Source: Nanobdellota archaeon (GTDB taxonomy: Archaea; Nanobdellota; Nanobdellia; Woesearchaeales; GW2011-AR9). From it: DNA of 32,875 nt. Location: positions 1 through 32,875 of the forward strand of contig JAHJDB010000041.1 in the NCBI GenBank assembly GCA_018812765.1, written 5' to 3'. Under the pieces are notes generated by a model. That model saw nothing but the letters and a program-made list of their open reading frames with translations. It was not told the DNA's origin and ran no database searches. A program made the position numbers and the translations under genes. Shown piece after piece: positions 6,355 to 32,800 of the stretch; position 1 is the first letter of the stretch; each line of letters starts with the position of its first letter.

Positions 6355-6406
6355 TTTTAATTTATTGTCCGTAATATATATAAAGAAACTCTATAAAAAT
6401 GTTCCT

Positions 6407-6673
6407 ATGTATCAGTTGGAGTTAAATAAAGCAATCGAACAGATTAAGGAGAGCAAAGCCAAGACTGTTTGCATCCAATTACCGGATGGTCTAAAGAGCA
6501 AATCTAAAGAGATTGTCGATGAGCTTGAATCTAAAACCAAAGCAACCGTATTGATTTGGTTAGGTAGCAATTTTGGCTCTTGCGACATACCTTTAGGTTT
6601 AGAACGGTTAAAAGTAGACTTTTTAATCTGTTGGGGCCACAATCAATTTCATAAGAAGGAGGAAGGCTGGTAA
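6407..6673 (+). CDS. dph2: Diphthamide biosynthesis enzyme Dph2, N-terminal domain (split gene, part 1)
   Basis: VCIQLPDGLK, FGSCD (first Fe-S Cys), WGH; ATG at 6407 preferred. Confidence 0.85.
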   Translation: MYQLELNKAIEQIKESKAKTVCIQLPDGLKSKSKEIVDELESKTKATVLIWLGSNFGSCDIPLGLERLKVDFLICWGHNQFHKKEEGW

Positions 6674-6687
6674 GCTATTATTGTAAG

Positions 6688-7401
6688 ATGAAAACCTTGT
6701 TCTTAGATGCACCTTACGCAGGGCTAGTTGAACTATCTCCGGAAACTTTAGACTATTTGATTAAAAAAGGTTATAAAAAAGTAGGCTTATATGCTTCTGT
6801 TCAGTTTGTAAATCGTTTAGAAGAAATAAAAAAACAGTTAGAAAGGAATAAGATTAAAGCTTTAACTTCAAGACCAGATAGAGCTCATGTTGAATCTCAA
6901 CTTTTGGGGTGTAATGTTCATGGTTTAAACTTAGAGGGAGATGTTGATTGTTACCTCTACGTCGGAGACGGGAAATTTCATCCCTTAGCTTTAGTTTACT
7001 CTCAGAAGAAAGGACAGAAAGAAGTAGTTTGCGACGACCCCTTAAGCCGGAAAATGAGCTTATTATCTCGGGAAAAGGTTAAGACAACCTTAAAGAAGTA
7101 TAAATCTTTTTTGATGAAGTTCTTGACAGCAAAAATTGTCGGAATAATTATCACTCTTAAGCCTGGACAAGAGCATTATGCTTTTAGTCAGAAACTTAAA
7201 GAAAAGTATCCGGACAAGAGGTTTTATTACTTTATTGATAATAATATTTCTTTTGAGCAGTTAGAGAATTTTCCTTTTGTAGATGTTTGGGTCAATACGG
7301 CTTGTCCCAGGATTGCTTTAGAAGAGCAAGATAAATTTCTGAAAGGAGTCATTAATTTGAATGATGCTTTGAATGCTAATGAAGTTTTAGCAGGTTTTTG
7401 A
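6688..7401 (+). CDS. dph2: Diphthamide biosynthesis enzyme Dph2, domains 2-3 (split gene, part 2)
   Basis: SVQF, QLLGCN, YVGDGKFHP, KPGQ, NTACPRI (second and third Fe-S Cys). Confidence 0.88.
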   Translation: MKTLFLDAPYAGLVELSPETLDYLIKKGYKKVGLYASVQFVNRLEEIKKQLERNKIKALTSRPDRAHVESQLLGCNVHGLNLEGDVDCYLYVGDGKFHPLALVYSQKKGQKEVVCDDPLSRKMSLLSREKVKTTLKKYKSFLMKFLTAKIVGIIITLKPGQEHYAFSQKLKEKYPDKRFYYFIDNNISFEQLENFPFVDVWVNTACPRIALEEQDKFLKGVINLNDALNANEVLAGF

Positions 7402-18279: not shown

Positions 18280-19071
18280 TTAATTTTTTTTGATCTCCCC
18301 GCCGCCAGCAGGAAGGAATTTGATGATGTCATCCAAGTCTCCGCCTTTTAATTTTGATTTTATCTTCTTGGCTAGACTGCTTTTCTTTTCTCTTCCGGAG
18401 ATGATGACAAGATAGTTGTTTGTTTTTGTTTTTACTGCTGTTACGGGGCCGCCGATAATCTTTTCTTCAACCAGACCGATGGTGTATTCCAGTTTCGGAT
18501 GAATATAGGTTGTTTTTCCCCGGATCATAAAGCTTCCTTTCTGAAGATATTCTCCTGATTGGGCTTCTTTGGTGACCTGTTCCGGCTTAACGTAAAAAAC
18601 GTCTGCACTGCCATGGCCTAGCTTCCAGGCTTTAGAATAGACGGCTACGGCCTGGGCAGTTTCGTCAAGAGTAGTTTCACCGGCTTCCTGTCCGTTTTTA
18701 ATCACAAAGAAAGGGCTTCCAGCCATATCAGTATGAAAGACTAAATCTTCTTTTTCTAGATGTTTTTTAATCACTATTTCGTTTGAGGTTGCATCTTTTC
18801 CACCGATGCACAAGAATCCTTCAGAAGAGATGAACCAATGAAACTTTTCATACCACTCTTTTTTACTTTCTTTTTTTGATTGTTTCCGGGCTTCTTCTGC
18901 CCAGAATTTATCTTCTTCTTTTCTCAGCTTTTCTAATTTACCTTCACTTTCTTTCAAGGCTTTTTTTGCTCCTTCTAATTTCTTCTTAGCTTTTTTTGAT
19001 AAGTTGAAGTAAGTGCCGGCATTTTCATCTACACTTTTAGTAAGATCAAATTCTATTTCCATTGTTATCAT
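18280..19071 (-). CDS. NFACT-R (DUF814) domain protein; N-terminally truncated Rqc2/RqcH/NEMF homolog
   Basis: FDLTKSVDENAGTYFNLSKKAKKK coiled coil, WYEKFHWFISSEGFLCIGGKDATSNE, FHTDMAGSP, SKAWK, QVTKEAQSGEYLQKGSFMIRGK. Confidence 0.88.
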   Translation of the reverse strand: MITMEIEFDLTKSVDENAGTYFNLSKKAKKKLEGAKKALKESEGKLEKLRKEEDKFWAEEARKQSKKESKKEWYEKFHWFISSEGFLCIGGKDATSNEIVIKKHLEKEDLVFHTDMAGSPFFVIKNGQEAGETTLDETAQAVAVYSKAWKLGHGSADVFYVKPEQVTKEAQSGEYLQKGSFMIRGKTTYIHPKLEYTIGLVEEKIIGGPVTAVKTKTNNYLVIISGREKKSSLAKKIKSKLKGGDLDDIIKFLPAGGGEIKKN

Positions 19072-20891: not shown

Positions 20892-20997
20892 TAGTTCGAT
20901 TCTCCATTATTTTTCTTTTTTCTGAAGCGGCTAATCCGAAACCCTATCCTACTACAGAGACCATAACCCTATACTTTGTATAAGAACATGATATCTT

Positions 20998-21054
20998 CCG
21001 TCTGGTCAAGTCATGTTTATTTGCGATAAACGATGACAAACATGACCCAGACGG
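20998..21054. other. Intergenic inverted repeat/hairpin
   Basis: CCGTCTGG (20998-21005) pairs with CCAGACGG (21047-21054); GTCATGTTT (21010-21018) pairs with AAACATGAC (21038-21046). Confidence 0.7.
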
Positions 21055-21119
21055 CTAAGGTTTCATAAAATTCCTCTGAAGCATAACAAATAAATAGAAC
21101 TGTGATTTTAATCTTAATC

Positions 21120-21395
21120 ATGAAAAAACGTCTTCGTATAAAGATTAAAGGACATGTGCAGGGAGTTTTCTTCAGGCATAATATCAGAGAGAAAGCTTTT
21201 ATCTACGATCTTAAAGGGTGGGTCAGGAATTCTAAGGATGGTTCTGTTGAAGCTGTTTTTGAAGGAGAAAAAGAAAGGCTGGAAAAAATGCTGAAGTTTT
21301 GTAAGGCTGGCCCTATAGTAGCAAGGATAGATGAAGTTAAAGTGGAGTGGAGTAAATCTAAAAACGAATTTGAAACTTTTGAAATAATCGAATAA
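21120..21395 (+). CDS. acyP: Acylphosphatase
   Basis: GHVQGVFFR phosphate-binding loop, GWVRN, DGSVEAVFEG, GP. Confidence 0.93.
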   Translation: MKKRLRIKIKGHVQGVFFRHNIREKAFIYDLKGWVRNSKDGSVEAVFEGEKERLEKMLKFCKAGPIVARIDEVKVEWSKSKNEFETFEIIE

Positions 21396-21409
21396 TTAAT
21401 TTTGAGAAC

Positions 21410-21892
21410 TTAACATTCTTTAATCTCTTCAAGAACTATGGCTTGATCAACGCAAATCTCTTCTTCTTCGTATAATTTAACTTTTGGAGATATCTTTACT
21501 TGTCTAATCTCTCCTGACACAGATTGATCATAGCTAACATGACCCAAATAAACTCCCGCTTTACCTATCCTTGTTTCAGGCATTTCAAAAGTTTCTGCTT
21601 TTTCTGTTCCGATGATGTTTACGATCAAGCCATCTACTTCTGTATTCACTCCGTTTTCAACAGTAAAAAAAAGATCGTTCTCACCAGAATTATAACAGAC
21701 TTGTTCTATTTTACTGACCACAGACAGTTGTAAACCGATGTTTACAGGACATTCTGCCTCTGATTCTACTTGCGCTCTTCCAAAATTCATGATTACTACA
21801 CCTAAAGCTACTGCAAAAGATATCAGCAACAGAGTTGCCATCAGAGGGGTAACTCCTTTTTTGTTCCAAAGTTTTTTGTTAAAAAATTTCAT
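21410..21892 (-). CDS. Archaeal type IV pilin-like protein (class III signal peptide)
   Basis: NKKG/VTPLMATLLLISFAVALGVVIMNFG prepilin cleavage site and hydrophobic helix; Cys-containing globular domain. Confidence 0.85.
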   Translation of the reverse strand: MKFFNKKLWNKKGVTPLMATLLLISFAVALGVVIMNFGRAQVESEAECPVNIGLQLSVVSKIEQVCYNSGENDLFFTVENGVNTEVDGLIVNIIGTEKAETFEMPETRIGKAGVYLGHVSYDQSVSGEIRQVKISPKVKLYEEEEICVDQAIVLEEIKEC

Positions 21893-21937
21893 GTTTATTA
21901 GTTTTAACCTTCAATTAATTTTGCCGTGTTGAAAGTT

Positions 21938-22378
21938 TTATTTTTTCCAATGGGTTTTATTTTTATGTAAAATTTCTTCAACACGATGAAAGGGAATAAA
22001 TACTTCTTTTTTACCTTTTTCTAAAAATACCAAGGTGTCTTTTTCAATATTTTTTATCTTTTTAGCTTCGAGAAGAATCAGTTTCTTTTTGATCTTGTCA
22101 TAGTATTTAATATGGAATTCATGTTTTTTTGGATGGGTATGCACTTTATGGAGTACAGCTCCAACCGGATCTCCTTTTTCCCAGAAAGGGCTTGTTCCTT
22201 TAAAGATTAAACCGGATAAGGATAACATTACTAGTCCAACTATTAAACTAATCAGGGGATTTTGGAGATAAGAAAGAGTACCGATTCCATCCCAGACTCC
22301 GGCCCAGAAAAAAACTACGCCCATCACCCCGAACAGGTACCAAAAATATTTTTTTATTTTTTCAAAGTTAAACATCAA
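21938..22378 (-). CDS. Two-TM protein fused to an MJ1316/DUF504-like domain (paralog B)
   Basis: TM hairpin (VFFWAGVWDG), then VLHKVHTHP..EFHIKYYDK...VFIPFHRVEEILHKNKTHWKK. Confidence 0.7.
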   Translation of the reverse strand: MMFNFEKIKKYFWYLFGVMGVVFFWAGVWDGIGTLSYLQNPLISLIVGLVMLSLSGLIFKGTSPFWEKGDPVGAVLHKVHTHPKKHEFHIKYYDKIKKKLILLEAKKIKNIEKDTLVFLEKGKKEVFIPFHRVEEILHKNKTHWKK

Positions 22379-22416
22379 TCTGCCTCTTTAATTTGTCTTT
22401 CTTCAATCTGTCTTTT

Positions 22417-22857
22417 TTATAGTTTCCAGCTGGTTTTTCCTTTATAAGTAACTTCAGTTAATCTGTGAATAGGGATAAAGACTTCCTGATTTCTGTTTTT
22501 ATGCCGCACTATAAGGATCCCTTTTTCCATTTTTTTTAATCTTTCAGCATCAATCAAGATGTCTTTCTTGAGAGATTTATCATGGTATTTTAACTTAAAA
22601 TTTTTTTTATCCGGATGTTTTTGTATAGTTGTTACAGTTTTATGGATTGCTTTTTCAACCCCTCCTAAAGGATCGAATTCCTTAAAGATGAGCCCCGAAA
22701 AGGTAAGCATGGCAAAACCGATGAACAGAAATACAAAAGAATCGCCGATGTAAGGAATCTCGTATAATCCTTCCCATAAGCCTTTCCAAACAAAAATTAT
22801 TGCTACAGCAGAGTACAAAGATGATAAGAAATGCTTGTCTTGTTCTCTAAGTATCAA
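22417..22857 (-). CDS. Two-TM protein fused to an MJ1316/DUF504-like domain (paralog A)
   Basis: TTG start with GAGGTG SD; TM hairpin (IFVWKGLWEG), then IQKHP..NFKLKYHDK...VFIPIHRLTEVTYKGKTSWKL. Confidence 0.7.
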   Translation of the reverse strand: MILREQDKHFLSSLYSAVAIIFVWKGLWEGLYEIPYIGDSFVFLFIGFAMLTFSGLIFKEFDPLGGVEKAIHKTVTTIQKHPDKKNFKLKYHDKSLKKDILIDAERLKKMEKGILIVRHKNRNQEVFIPIHRLTEVTYKGKTSWKL

Positions 22858-22963
22858 ATAAATTACACCTCTTTTAACAGTATTGTAAATGGTGCTGATT
22901 ATAAATATCTTTCTGTGCTTGTTAAAAGTTACCTTTAATAAATTTTAAGGTTAATCTACTTAA

Positions 22964-23329
22964 TTATTTTCTTTCTTCAACGTACAAAGTGTACTTGTCT
23001 GCTTTAAAGAAATCTTTGCAGAATTTAGCTGTCTTTTTGGGGTTATAAGTCTTACAACTAAAAACGTCTATGAAAGCTCTATCCCCTTGCTCATCAAAAT
23101 GGCTTATGATTGTGCTAGTTTCAATAAATTGCATCATTGAGTACCCTCTTAACTTCCCATGCCCAAACCTCTTTATTTTGGGAGGCCCGACTCGTTTCAT
23201 TTTTAGTTCTTTTACTATAGCGCAAACAAATTTTTTGATTTCTTTAGGGTTCTTAATTAGATTGTGGTTACAGCCATGAAGATCTATGCTTGCTGATCTC
23301 CCCCACCACCAATCTTTTTTTTGAGGCAT
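22964..23329 (-). CDS. S-adenosylmethionine decarboxylase proenzyme-like protein (pyruvoyl-dependent, class 1B fold)
   Basis: IDLHGC, GYSMMQFIETSTIISHF (ETS instead of ESH at the self-cleavage site), AFIDVFSCK. Confidence 0.8.
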   Translation of the reverse strand: MPQKKDWWWGRSASIDLHGCNHNLIKNPKEIKKFVCAIVKELKMKRVGPPKIKRFGHGKLRGYSMMQFIETSTIISHFDEQGDRAFIDVFSCKTYNPKKTAKFCKDFFKADKYTLYVEERK

Positions 23330-23406
23330 AGAGTTAATAGAATAGAAAATTATTTAAAAGTTTGCAAAATAAAGTATCCACCAGATAGTAGTAATTAATA
23401 GAAACC

Positions 23407-23414
23407 TTTATAAA
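23407..23414 (+). promoter_or_regulatory. Archaeal TATA box with BRE
   Basis: GAAACC-TTTATAAATA upstream of GAGGT SD and ATG 23458. Confidence 0.55.
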
Positions 23415-23457
23415 TAGGCTTTATTCATGATATTTATCAAGAAATGAGGTAATTAAA

Positions 23458-23664
23458 ATGAATAATACAATTGAAAACACTCTTGAAAGAATGGCTGATA
23501 GTGTTAGAAGCGCAAGAATCAGATTAGGAAATCCTGCTGAAGAAGAAGCTAAATTACTTAGAAAATCAGTAAAGCTTTACCCAGTAGATTTTGAAGGAAC
23601 AAGCACTCCTAAGATGGGGATTTATTTTTCAGAAGGAAACTACGATACTAGTTGTATGTGGTAA
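23458..23664 (+). CDS. Small hypothetical protein
   Basis: 68-aa ORF with TATA, GAGGT SD and a T-rich terminator-like tract downstream. Confidence 0.55.
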   Translation: MNNTIENTLERMADSVRSARIRLGNPAEEEAKLLRKSVKLYPVDFEGTSTPKMGIYFSEGNYDTSCMW

Positions 23665-23713
23665 TTTCTGTTTTTTTTATTTTTTTAAAAAATTTAAAAA
23701 CTGGTGAGTGCAA

Positions 23714-29533: not shown

Positions 29534-32800
<3,267 letters not shown>

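Follow-up and report, generated by a model that had tools for sequence, protein, structure and literature searches.

Paired membrane-anchored MJ1316 proteins in Woesearchaeota-type archaea: candidate tethers or sensors for RNA ends or nucleotides

MJ1316 (DUF504; Pfam PF04457) is a widespread domain of archaea and eukaryotes whose role is experimentally unsettled. PMC6514570 holds that the domain recognises RNA 2'-3' cyclic ends, a property taken from earlier work, and describes eukaryotic fusions in which MJ1316 is an add-on module, presumably for the RNA end, of soluble RNA-repair and release-factor-like enzymes (2H-type, C12orf65-like). Archaea encode it as a soluble protein of ~80 amino acids (aa), UPF0248/MJ1316. 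Here, we analyse a 32,875-nucleotide (nt) stretch of DNA from a small groundwater archaeon of the Nanobdellota (contig JAHJDB010000041.1; this whole stretch is called the window), in which two adjacent genes, A and B, each add an MJ1316 domain to a membrane hairpin of two transmembrane (TM) helices. The hairpin is non-enzymatic and, unlike the eukaryotic fusion partners, brings no catalytic domain. This architecture is real, conserved and apparently undescribed in the literature searched. Our preferred reading, to which we give a probability of roughly 0.4, is that A and B constitute an accessory heteromer that serves as a membrane tether or sensor by binding either a nucleotide or the 3' end of an RNA.

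Other systems are close to the pair in outline. The effectors of cyclic-nucleotide defence systems combine TM segments with a SAVED- or CARF-type sensor, whereas PilN/PilO and GspL/GspM are paralogous bitopic pairs of type IV pilus and type II secretion systems, each protein with one TM helix and a periplasmic domain. A and B resemble the defence effectors in outline only, with few TM helices and a small, predicted cytoplasmic ligand-binding domain, and differ in the fold and family of that domain, in having no partner synthase and no defence neighbourhood, and in the absence of a PADLOC match. With PilN/PilO and GspL/GspM they share an arrangement in which small, related membrane proteins come as a pair of neighbouring genes close to a pilin gene, and from which a heterodimer would be expected; they have no sequence or fold relation to these proteins, two TM helices rather than one, a cytoplasmic domain and no adjacent ATPase or platform gene. 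Small barrels of the Sm-like or SH3-like type, namely SspB, WYL domains and Hfq, also count among the closest known systems.

A membrane hairpin joined to an MJ1316 domain

Genes A and B (Table 1) are separated by 38 nt in the list of open reading frames (ORFs), and their products share 51 of 141 residues (36% identity; BLASTP, E 6e-34), which confirms the two adjacent, paralogous 146-aa ORFs described in an earlier reading of the bare sequence (the sequence-only reading). The motifs quoted there, namely WAGVWDG/WKGLWEG, LSGLIFK/FSGLIFK, HP, KY.DK, EVFIP.HR and WK, are all found in the translations. In A, the two-TM hairpin (WAGVWDG ... LSGLIFK) is followed by an MJ1316 domain at residues 74-146; in B, an N-terminal REQDKHFL motif precedes the hairpin (WKGLWEG ... 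FSGLIFKEFDPLGG) and an MJ1316 domain at residues ~70-146. For A, the ATG one codon inside the TTG is the more likely start, as in the public 145-aa call (P0001). For B, the public call is a 133-aa version (P0094); its 146-aa start at TTG is supported by the conserved N-terminus of its homologues, M-x-L-R-E-Q-D-K-H-F(L), and by a GAGGTG located 8 nt upstream.

The identity of the C-terminal domain is established by several comparisons. A matches PF04457 with 33.1 bits (cut-off 26.3; residues 74-146 on profile positions 6-75 of 75), and B scores 25.9 bits in hmmscan, slightly below the same cut-off; in a six-frame search of the genome with this profile, the two reach 34.3 and 26.8 bits, both flagged above cut-off. 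Across the anchored family, 85 of 86 members match PF04457 at E<=0.1, and the anchored family can be aligned with a profile built from 33 soluble MJ1316 proteins at a probability of 99.05% (hhalign; E 2.2e-18, 75 columns). The sequence-only reading had assigned this domain to MJ1316/DUF504 and named a profile comparison as the way to check it, and both the Pfam matches and the alignment to soluble MJ1316 bear the assignment out, along with the two-TM-plus-MJ1316 layout, which is conserved across the family. Specifically, the Y-x-D, the I/E positions, E..IP.HR and the terminal W are kept at 80% or more across A, B, three single-copy and 13 soluble sequences, and within the 86 anchored sequences D94 and P129 never vary, and H131 and R132 hardly ever do. 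The soluble proteins thus carry the same domain end to end, with Y-x-D, E, E..IP.HR and W common to both forms; they differ in having no membrane part and in the helix motif LLNKIKWD, which is replaced by (V/I)H.HP in the anchored forms. The anchored C-terminal domains are very basic, with a mean of 17.6 K+R against 8.5 D+E, and contain 0.05 Cys per sequence (86 sequences). Besides MJ1316, no other domain was detected in A or B, including SAVED, CARF or similar second-messenger sensors, and neither protein has a match in NCBIfam.

The structure of A was modelled with AlphaFold2 from an alignment of 86 sequences, giving a mean predicted local distance difference test score (pLDDT) of 81.9 and values of 90-96 in blocks of the C-terminal domain. 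The model contains helices at residues 5-32, 41-59 and 71-81 and seven strands, and the MJ1316 domain is modelled as a helix plus a small Sm/SH3-like barrel. A Foldseek search of the Protein Data Bank (PDB) with this model gave no match at E<=1e-3, the top rows being Hfq proteins; the model was also compared with 48,161 chains by VIA-align. By sequence, neither the soluble-family profile (best E 0.21) nor A (best E 0.28) has a match in the PDB, and no solved MJ1316 structure was found there for comparison.

For some relatives of A and B, public records already use the label 'DUF504 domain-containing protein' or 'RNA repair domain-containing protein', and the domain content as such is therefore not a new recognition. 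As for the fusion, which the sequence-only reading believed to be undescribed, no description was found in the literature searched, a search that did not extend to the primary MJ1316 paper and its supplements. Longer fused forms of B were absent at E<=1e-3 among 248 candidates, which is weak evidence. Two further proteins carry an A-type MJ1316 C-terminal domain: P0233 (641 aa), with a Sortilin/BNR-repeat ectodomain and one TM helix, and P0242 (250 aa), with a zinc-ribbon-like region and HTH_3 and no TM helix. As each is known from one contig, both are anecdotal and could be fusion artefacts.

The membrane part of A and B consists of two hydrophobic segments at approximately residues 11-33 and 40-60. 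Mean K+R counts over 86 sequences are 0.17 in the loop between the helices, 2.07 in the tail before TM1 and 3.43 in the 20 residues after TM2. Because the loop is nearly free of K and R, the positive-inside rule predicts an N-in/C-in two-helix hairpin that would leave the MJ1316 domain in the cytoplasm. Six hairpin residues are strongly conserved (W25, G27, W29, G31, G48, S55).

By sequence comparison, the hairpin is a separate, mobile membrane module. Proteins that carry it without MJ1316 align to residues 1-78 of B at 99.5% probability (hhalign, E 4e-23); they usually have charged or coiled-coil tails (P0252, P0261, P0287, P0335 and others), and one of them comes from a Peregrinibacteria record. 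The module can be written as DKxFL ... FWxGxWEG ... P ... G...L..SG, corresponding to residues 1-66 of A and B. There is no Pfam family for the hairpin itself. Fuseless (PF15993) does not match A or B and is reached by only three of 86 family members, weakly (E<=0.1), and two hairpin-only relatives pass its cut-off of 25 bits (P0349 with 34.6, P0283 with 28.0). In the Protein Atlas, the hairpin alone gave no usable match and the whole protein matched solely its own kind.

Distribution, gene order and ancestry of the pair

A word-indexed search returned 93 relatives of A and 212 of B, all ~145 aa long, and those with a named source are metagenome-assembled genomes of Woesearchaeota or Nanoarchaeota. 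When the family profile was run against 1.84 billion cluster representatives, 166 matched at E<=1e-3. Roughly 30 of them match over their full length, and the remainder are soluble MJ1316 or hairpin-only proteins. Full-length matches are present in 43 of 401 genomes sampled from the phylum (each at least 90% complete), and all 43 belong to the window's own order. As such, anchored MJ1316 is confined, in the samples searched, to this one order of Woesearchaeota-type archaea.

Within the same 401 genomes, no family but the window's own has the two-copy form. There, the genes are found in the window's genome and in 22 of the 41 others, with at least two copies in 21 of these 22. Single copies occur in 14 of the 29 genomes of a second family, f44, as well as in six further families. 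In a wider sample of 81 genomes from the window's family, the genes are present in 44, and 43 of these 44 have at least two copies; of the 56 genomes in the sample with a completeness of 90% or more, 32 carry the genes. Since the genes are present in some genomes of the family and then almost always in two copies, the pair is an accessory unit whose members are kept or lost together. One genome of the family (G469) has two separate pairs, on contigs C83 and C79. Soluble-type MJ1316 was not found in the window's genome, where the six-frame search recovers A and B only, nor as a strong match (E<=1e-8) in any of 22 other genomes of the family.

To resolve gene order, 185,579 species genomes were scanned with a B-only alignment, and the resulting 71 loci were classified with A- and B-specific hidden Markov models. 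Sixty loci have at least two anchored copies: 56 are simple B-then-A pairs, three have an A-like gene followed by a B-like gene and one reads B-A-B-A; the remaining 11 are single, three of them at contig ends. Stop codon and next start are spaced by -13 to +9 nt in 45 of these 56 B-then-A pairs, which places the 38 nt of the window at the long end of B-A spacings. The B-A-B-A locus (L084, 4001-5931) has its four anchored MJ1316 genes ahead of a pilin gene.

In a quick maximum-likelihood tree of 135 sequences, all 62 A copies fall on one side of a single branch (SH-aLRT, an approximate likelihood-ratio support value, 90), the single-copy forms lie with the B copies on the other, and the subtrees of the two paralogues are parallel. 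B retains the juxtamembrane motifs of the single-copy form, REQDKHFL and FKEFDPLGG, which A has lost and which presumably represent the ancestral state; A is the faster-evolving copy and forms one clade. Tree, fixed order and B motifs together point to one old duplication followed by co-divergence and obligate co-retention. The sequence-only reading had held that the pair is conserved and that two diverged copies suggest a hetero-oligomer. The first claim stands, with B-then-A order at 56 of 71 loci and genes in 44 of 81 family genomes, and the second fits the fixed order, the abutting genes and their joint retention, from which we infer a likely hetero-oligomer.

Genomic contexts and what the pair may do

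Relatives of A and B recur in two further genomic contexts. In family f44, genes for an AI-2E-family transporter, an AMP phosphorylase and an anchored MJ1316 protein lie together at 10 of 12 loci (L112-L123), the last two overlapping by 4 nt, and the same AMP phosphorylase-MJ1316 overlap is present at one locus of another family (L011, f94); the phosphorylase reaches 567 and 579 bits on the AMP phosphorylase equivalog TIGR03327 (cut-off 535). The soluble ~80-aa MJ1316 gene, on the other hand, sits in gatD-gatE operons, where anchored genes were never seen among the loci read. Specifically, it abuts or overlaps gatD and/or gatE at 12 of 18 loci of the order (L014-L034; among the 12 is L022, whose genome carries an unpublished flag) and abuts one or both at 21 of 27 loci in a phylum-wide sample that includes other orders (L139-L165), the two samples sharing five genomes. 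This suggests that soluble MJ1316 is an undescribed GatDE-associated protein. In the window's genome, gatE is on contig C47 and gatD and AMP phosphorylase are on C108, none of them linked to A/B. GatDE is the tRNA-dependent Glu-tRNA(Gln) amidotransferase, whose target is the acylated 3' end of tRNA; that of AMP phosphorylase is a mononucleotide. A terminal ribonucleotide is a common thread of both contexts, and it also runs through the statement on cyclic ends in PMC6514570.

These data are compatible with a model in which A and B are co-transcribed, paralogous proteins of the cytoplasmic membrane whose hairpins would pack into a hetero-oligomer. This complex would hold two diverged, very basic MJ1316 domains at the inner membrane face, where they may bind a terminal ribonucleotide, either the 3' end of an RNA or tRNA (free, cyclic-phosphate or acylated) or a mononucleotide. 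The pair could thereby tether or sense nucleotides or the ends of RNA at the membrane, and would represent a dispensable module of one Woesearchaeota-type DPANN family that arose by one old duplication of the single-copy gene seen elsewhere in the order. Hetero-oligomerisation, ligand and biological role are what we infer from this material, and several points weigh against the model. The assignment of MJ1316 to RNA ends was itself derived computationally, from domain fusions; the pilin, AMP phosphorylase and gatDE contexts point to no single process; the conserved neighbourhood within one family is largely vertical inheritance; and the conservation of the hairpin could mean that the membrane part does more than anchor, for instance as a pore.

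The pair nonetheless offers a natural membrane-tethered MJ1316, in a single-copy and an obligate two-copy form, within one DPANN order in the samples searched, and a separable membrane module of two helices, found in proteins lacking MJ1316 as well. Additionally, the three contexts (gatD-MJ1316-gatE, AMP phosphorylase-MJ1316 and B-A-pilin) make the label 'RNA repair domain' testable, since they suggest binding of a terminal ribonucleotide or a tRNA acceptor end, possibly at the membrane. If heteromer and ligand hold true, A and B would provide the first functional handle on MJ1316 in DPANN archaea.

The third context is the pilin-like gene that begins 45 nt after the stop of A on the same strand, as the sequence-only reading had noted. 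In its product, a class III signal peptide (KKG/VTPLMATLLLISFAVALG) is combined with four invariant cysteines, which fit an extracellular protein; the product passes TIGR02537 narrowly (20.1 bits, cut-off 20; E 3.4e-4). The motif KKG(I/V)TPLMATLLLISFAVA is conserved across 39 pilin-like sequences, one of which matches Pfam Pilin_N weakly (E 0.056). Pattern matching found no terminator-like site between B, A and the pilin gene on the minus strand, the leader upstream of B would supply a promoter and a ribosome-binding site for a B-A-pilin transcript, and the pilin-like gene is, judging from this layout, probably co-transcribed with A/B. A pilin homologue directly follows the last MJ1316 gene at 54 of 71 loci, often overlapping it.

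In the 81 genomes of the window's family, however, the pilin is more widespread than the pair. It is present in 74: both occur in 43 genomes, the pilin only in 31, the pair only in one and neither in six. Twelve loci without the pair keep the surrounding block, with a gene for an NFACT-R protein beside the pilin at nine and EndoV at five, and MJ1316 at none. Because these loci retain the EndoV/pilin/NFACT-R synteny, the pilin is independent of A/B, and the pair is an insert or deletable unit between AdoMetDC (S-adenosylmethionine decarboxylase)/EndoV and a family-wide pilin gene; the 54 pilin-linked loci are one inherited arrangement and not independent observations. The linkage to the pilin, for which the sequence-only reading had suggested a neighbourhood survey, thus holds as far as the conserved pair and the 54 downstream pilins are concerned and is weak in view of the 31 genomes that keep the pilin without the pair. 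Those genomes and the syntenic pair-less loci also rule out that the pilin depends on the pair.

This bears on the strongest rival to the membrane tether or sensor, in which A and B are pilus or pilin accessory proteins: their hairpins would join the N-terminal helix of the pilin as an assembly platform, anchor or transmembrane link, with the MJ1316 barrels as cytoplasmic docking or signalling domains. The 54 adjacent pilins, often overlapping, and the terminator-free spacing in the window favour this idea. So does the 'TPLxAT'-type class III N-terminus, which is found in only one of 2,425 ORFs of the window's genome, yet occurs within 1.5 kb of three of 28 single-copy anchored genes (L007, L009, L088) in differing arrangements; L007 and L009 belong to two other families and lend the pilin link some independent support. 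The genome, furthermore, encodes pilus-type machinery elsewhere, with T2SSE-type ATPases on contigs C22 and C71 and a prepilin peptidase on C39 (57.5 bits). On the other side stand the 31 pilin-bearing genomes without the pair, the non-independence of the 54 loci and the preserved synteny of the pair-less ones, the 25 of 28 single-copy loci that have no such pilin neighbour, and the gene neighbourhood, in which no ATPase or PilC-type gene adjoins the pair, the T2SSE-type ATPases and the peptidase all lying outside the window. A pilus role also gives no reason for a domain of the RNA-end type, and we consider it unlikely.

At two of these single-copy loci, the anchored gene lies beside a conserved trio that encodes two membrane proteins of ~100 aa and a 76-93-aa protein with a pilin-type N-terminus (L007/L096, 592-1437; L009, 664-1499). 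The trio is divergent at one locus and co-directional and overlapping at the other.

A further possibility, which we regard as improbable, is nucleic-acid acquisition or salvage. Here, the anchored MJ1316 would be the receiver or sensor for nucleotides, or for the ends of RNA or DNA, that arrive on the inner side of the membrane; it would be coupled to salvage by AMP phosphorylase, and the pilin-like protein or a transporter would be the outer part. How far DPANN archaea depend on scavenged nucleotides is a standing question, and PMC8421398 proposes that Woesearchaeota use extracellular DNA via the AMP phosphorylase pathway. That proposal speaks for the idea, together with the cluster of transporter, AMP phosphorylase and anchored MJ1316 with its 4-nt overlap (10 of 12 f44 loci and L011) and with the pilin-like neighbours in other lineages. 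However, the AMP phosphorylase gene of the window's genome, on C108, has no MJ1316 neighbour, no ComEC-type channel lies near the pair, and the pair is missing from 37 of 81 family genomes, although salvage would presumably be needed by all; the idea is, moreover, assembled from two unrelated neighbourhoods. Its boldest extension, and a long shot, is that the anchored MJ1316 forms the cytoplasmic receiving end of an unrecognised archaeal uptake-salvage system for nucleic acids or nucleotides, in which a pilin-like component or transporter delivers and A/B captures incoming 3' ends or nucleotides and passes them to salvage enzymes such as AMP phosphorylase, and that, in parallel, soluble MJ1316 is a third GatDE component that holds the tRNA acceptor end.

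The sequence-only reading had drawn a parallel to the membrane effectors of nucleotide-signalling defence, and this parallel found no support. The 28 larger ORFs of the window are housekeeping genes or unassigned in Pfam; they include class II ribonucleotide reductase, pseudouridine synthase, CDP-archaeol synthase, CCA-adding enzyme, SMC and GyrB, and the pair's neighbours are AdoMetDC, EndoV, acylphosphatase, SpoIIM, the NFACT-R protein and SMC. Pfam searches of these 28 and six nearby ORFs showed no signal-generating enzyme (CD-NTase, cyclase, Cas10, TIR) and no CARF or SAVED partner near the pair; PADLOC returned no match for A, B or the pilin and one 12.8-bit noise match among 15 proteins, and PHROGs matched none of six. 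A hetero-oligomeric channel or effector gated by 2',3'-cyclic-phosphate RNA or a cyclic nucleotide, in the manner of CBASS or type III CRISPR, is accordingly the least probable of the readings: the general resemblance of a two-TM protein with a small ligand-binding domain, the highly conserved hairpin residues, the patchy presence of the pair (44 of 81 genomes) and the weak scores of a few hairpin-only relatives on holin-type or Fuseless models are outweighed by the absence of any signal-making enzyme or defence gene in the window, the empty PADLOC and PHROGs searches, a fixed syntenic place among housekeeping genes as opposed to a variable island, the association of relatives with AMP phosphorylase and gatDE genes, even base composition and a lack of flanking repeats. 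The A/B pair is very unlikely to be a defence effector, and it adds no new defence system.

Other features of the window

The coordinates of the pair, its leader and the other features discussed here are collected in Table 1. The base composition of the A/B region matches its surroundings, no flanking repeats were found around the pair beyond AT-rich chance matches, and Rfam gave no match at E<=0.1 over 20900-23700. A mobile or viral origin of the pair was considered and rejected in view of the even composition, the absence of repeats and the absence of a PHROG match.

Table 1 Features of the window (positions are those of the whole stretch)
Feature	Coordinates	Strand	Description
Gene A	21938-22378	-	Downstream paralogue; 146 aa from TTG, 145 aa from ATG at 22375
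Gene B	22417-22857	-	Upstream paralogue; 146 aa from TTG
Pilin-like ORF	21410-21892	-	160 aa; begins 45 nt after A stop; co-directional
Leader upstream of B	22858-22963	-	TATA-like TATTTATAAT at 22898-22907; Shine-Dalgarno-like GAGGTG at 22866-22871
S-adenosylmethionine decarboxylase gene	22964-23329		106 nt upstream of B
NFACT-R protein	18280-19071	-	263 aa; matches only the C-terminal part of archaeal RqcH (NF041120, 381-645 of 645)
Dph2-type ORF, first	6365-6673	+	Covers 1-59 of the diphthamide synthesis profile
Dph2-type ORF, second	6688-7401	+	Covers 85-287 of the same profile
GyrB with intein	29534-32782	-	1,082 aa; Intein_splicing at residues 456-880

The S-adenosylmethionine decarboxylase gene upstream of B is likewise found near the pair at 22 of 71 loci. 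At L013 (962-1944), an ORF that overlaps the single-copy gene resembles, by eye only, a pyruvoyl-dependent arginine decarboxylase, so that polyamine-synthesis genes recur beside anchored MJ1316 genes. On the far side of the pilin, the NFACT-R protein has homologues of similar length beside the pilin-like gene at 33 of 71 loci and at nine of the 12 pair-less ones; since these recur, it looks like a conserved short protein and not like a truncated gene. Elsewhere, the two adjacent Dph2-type ORFs could represent a split gene, a frameshift or a sequencing error, and the GyrB gene carries its intein between the GyrB and Toprim parts.

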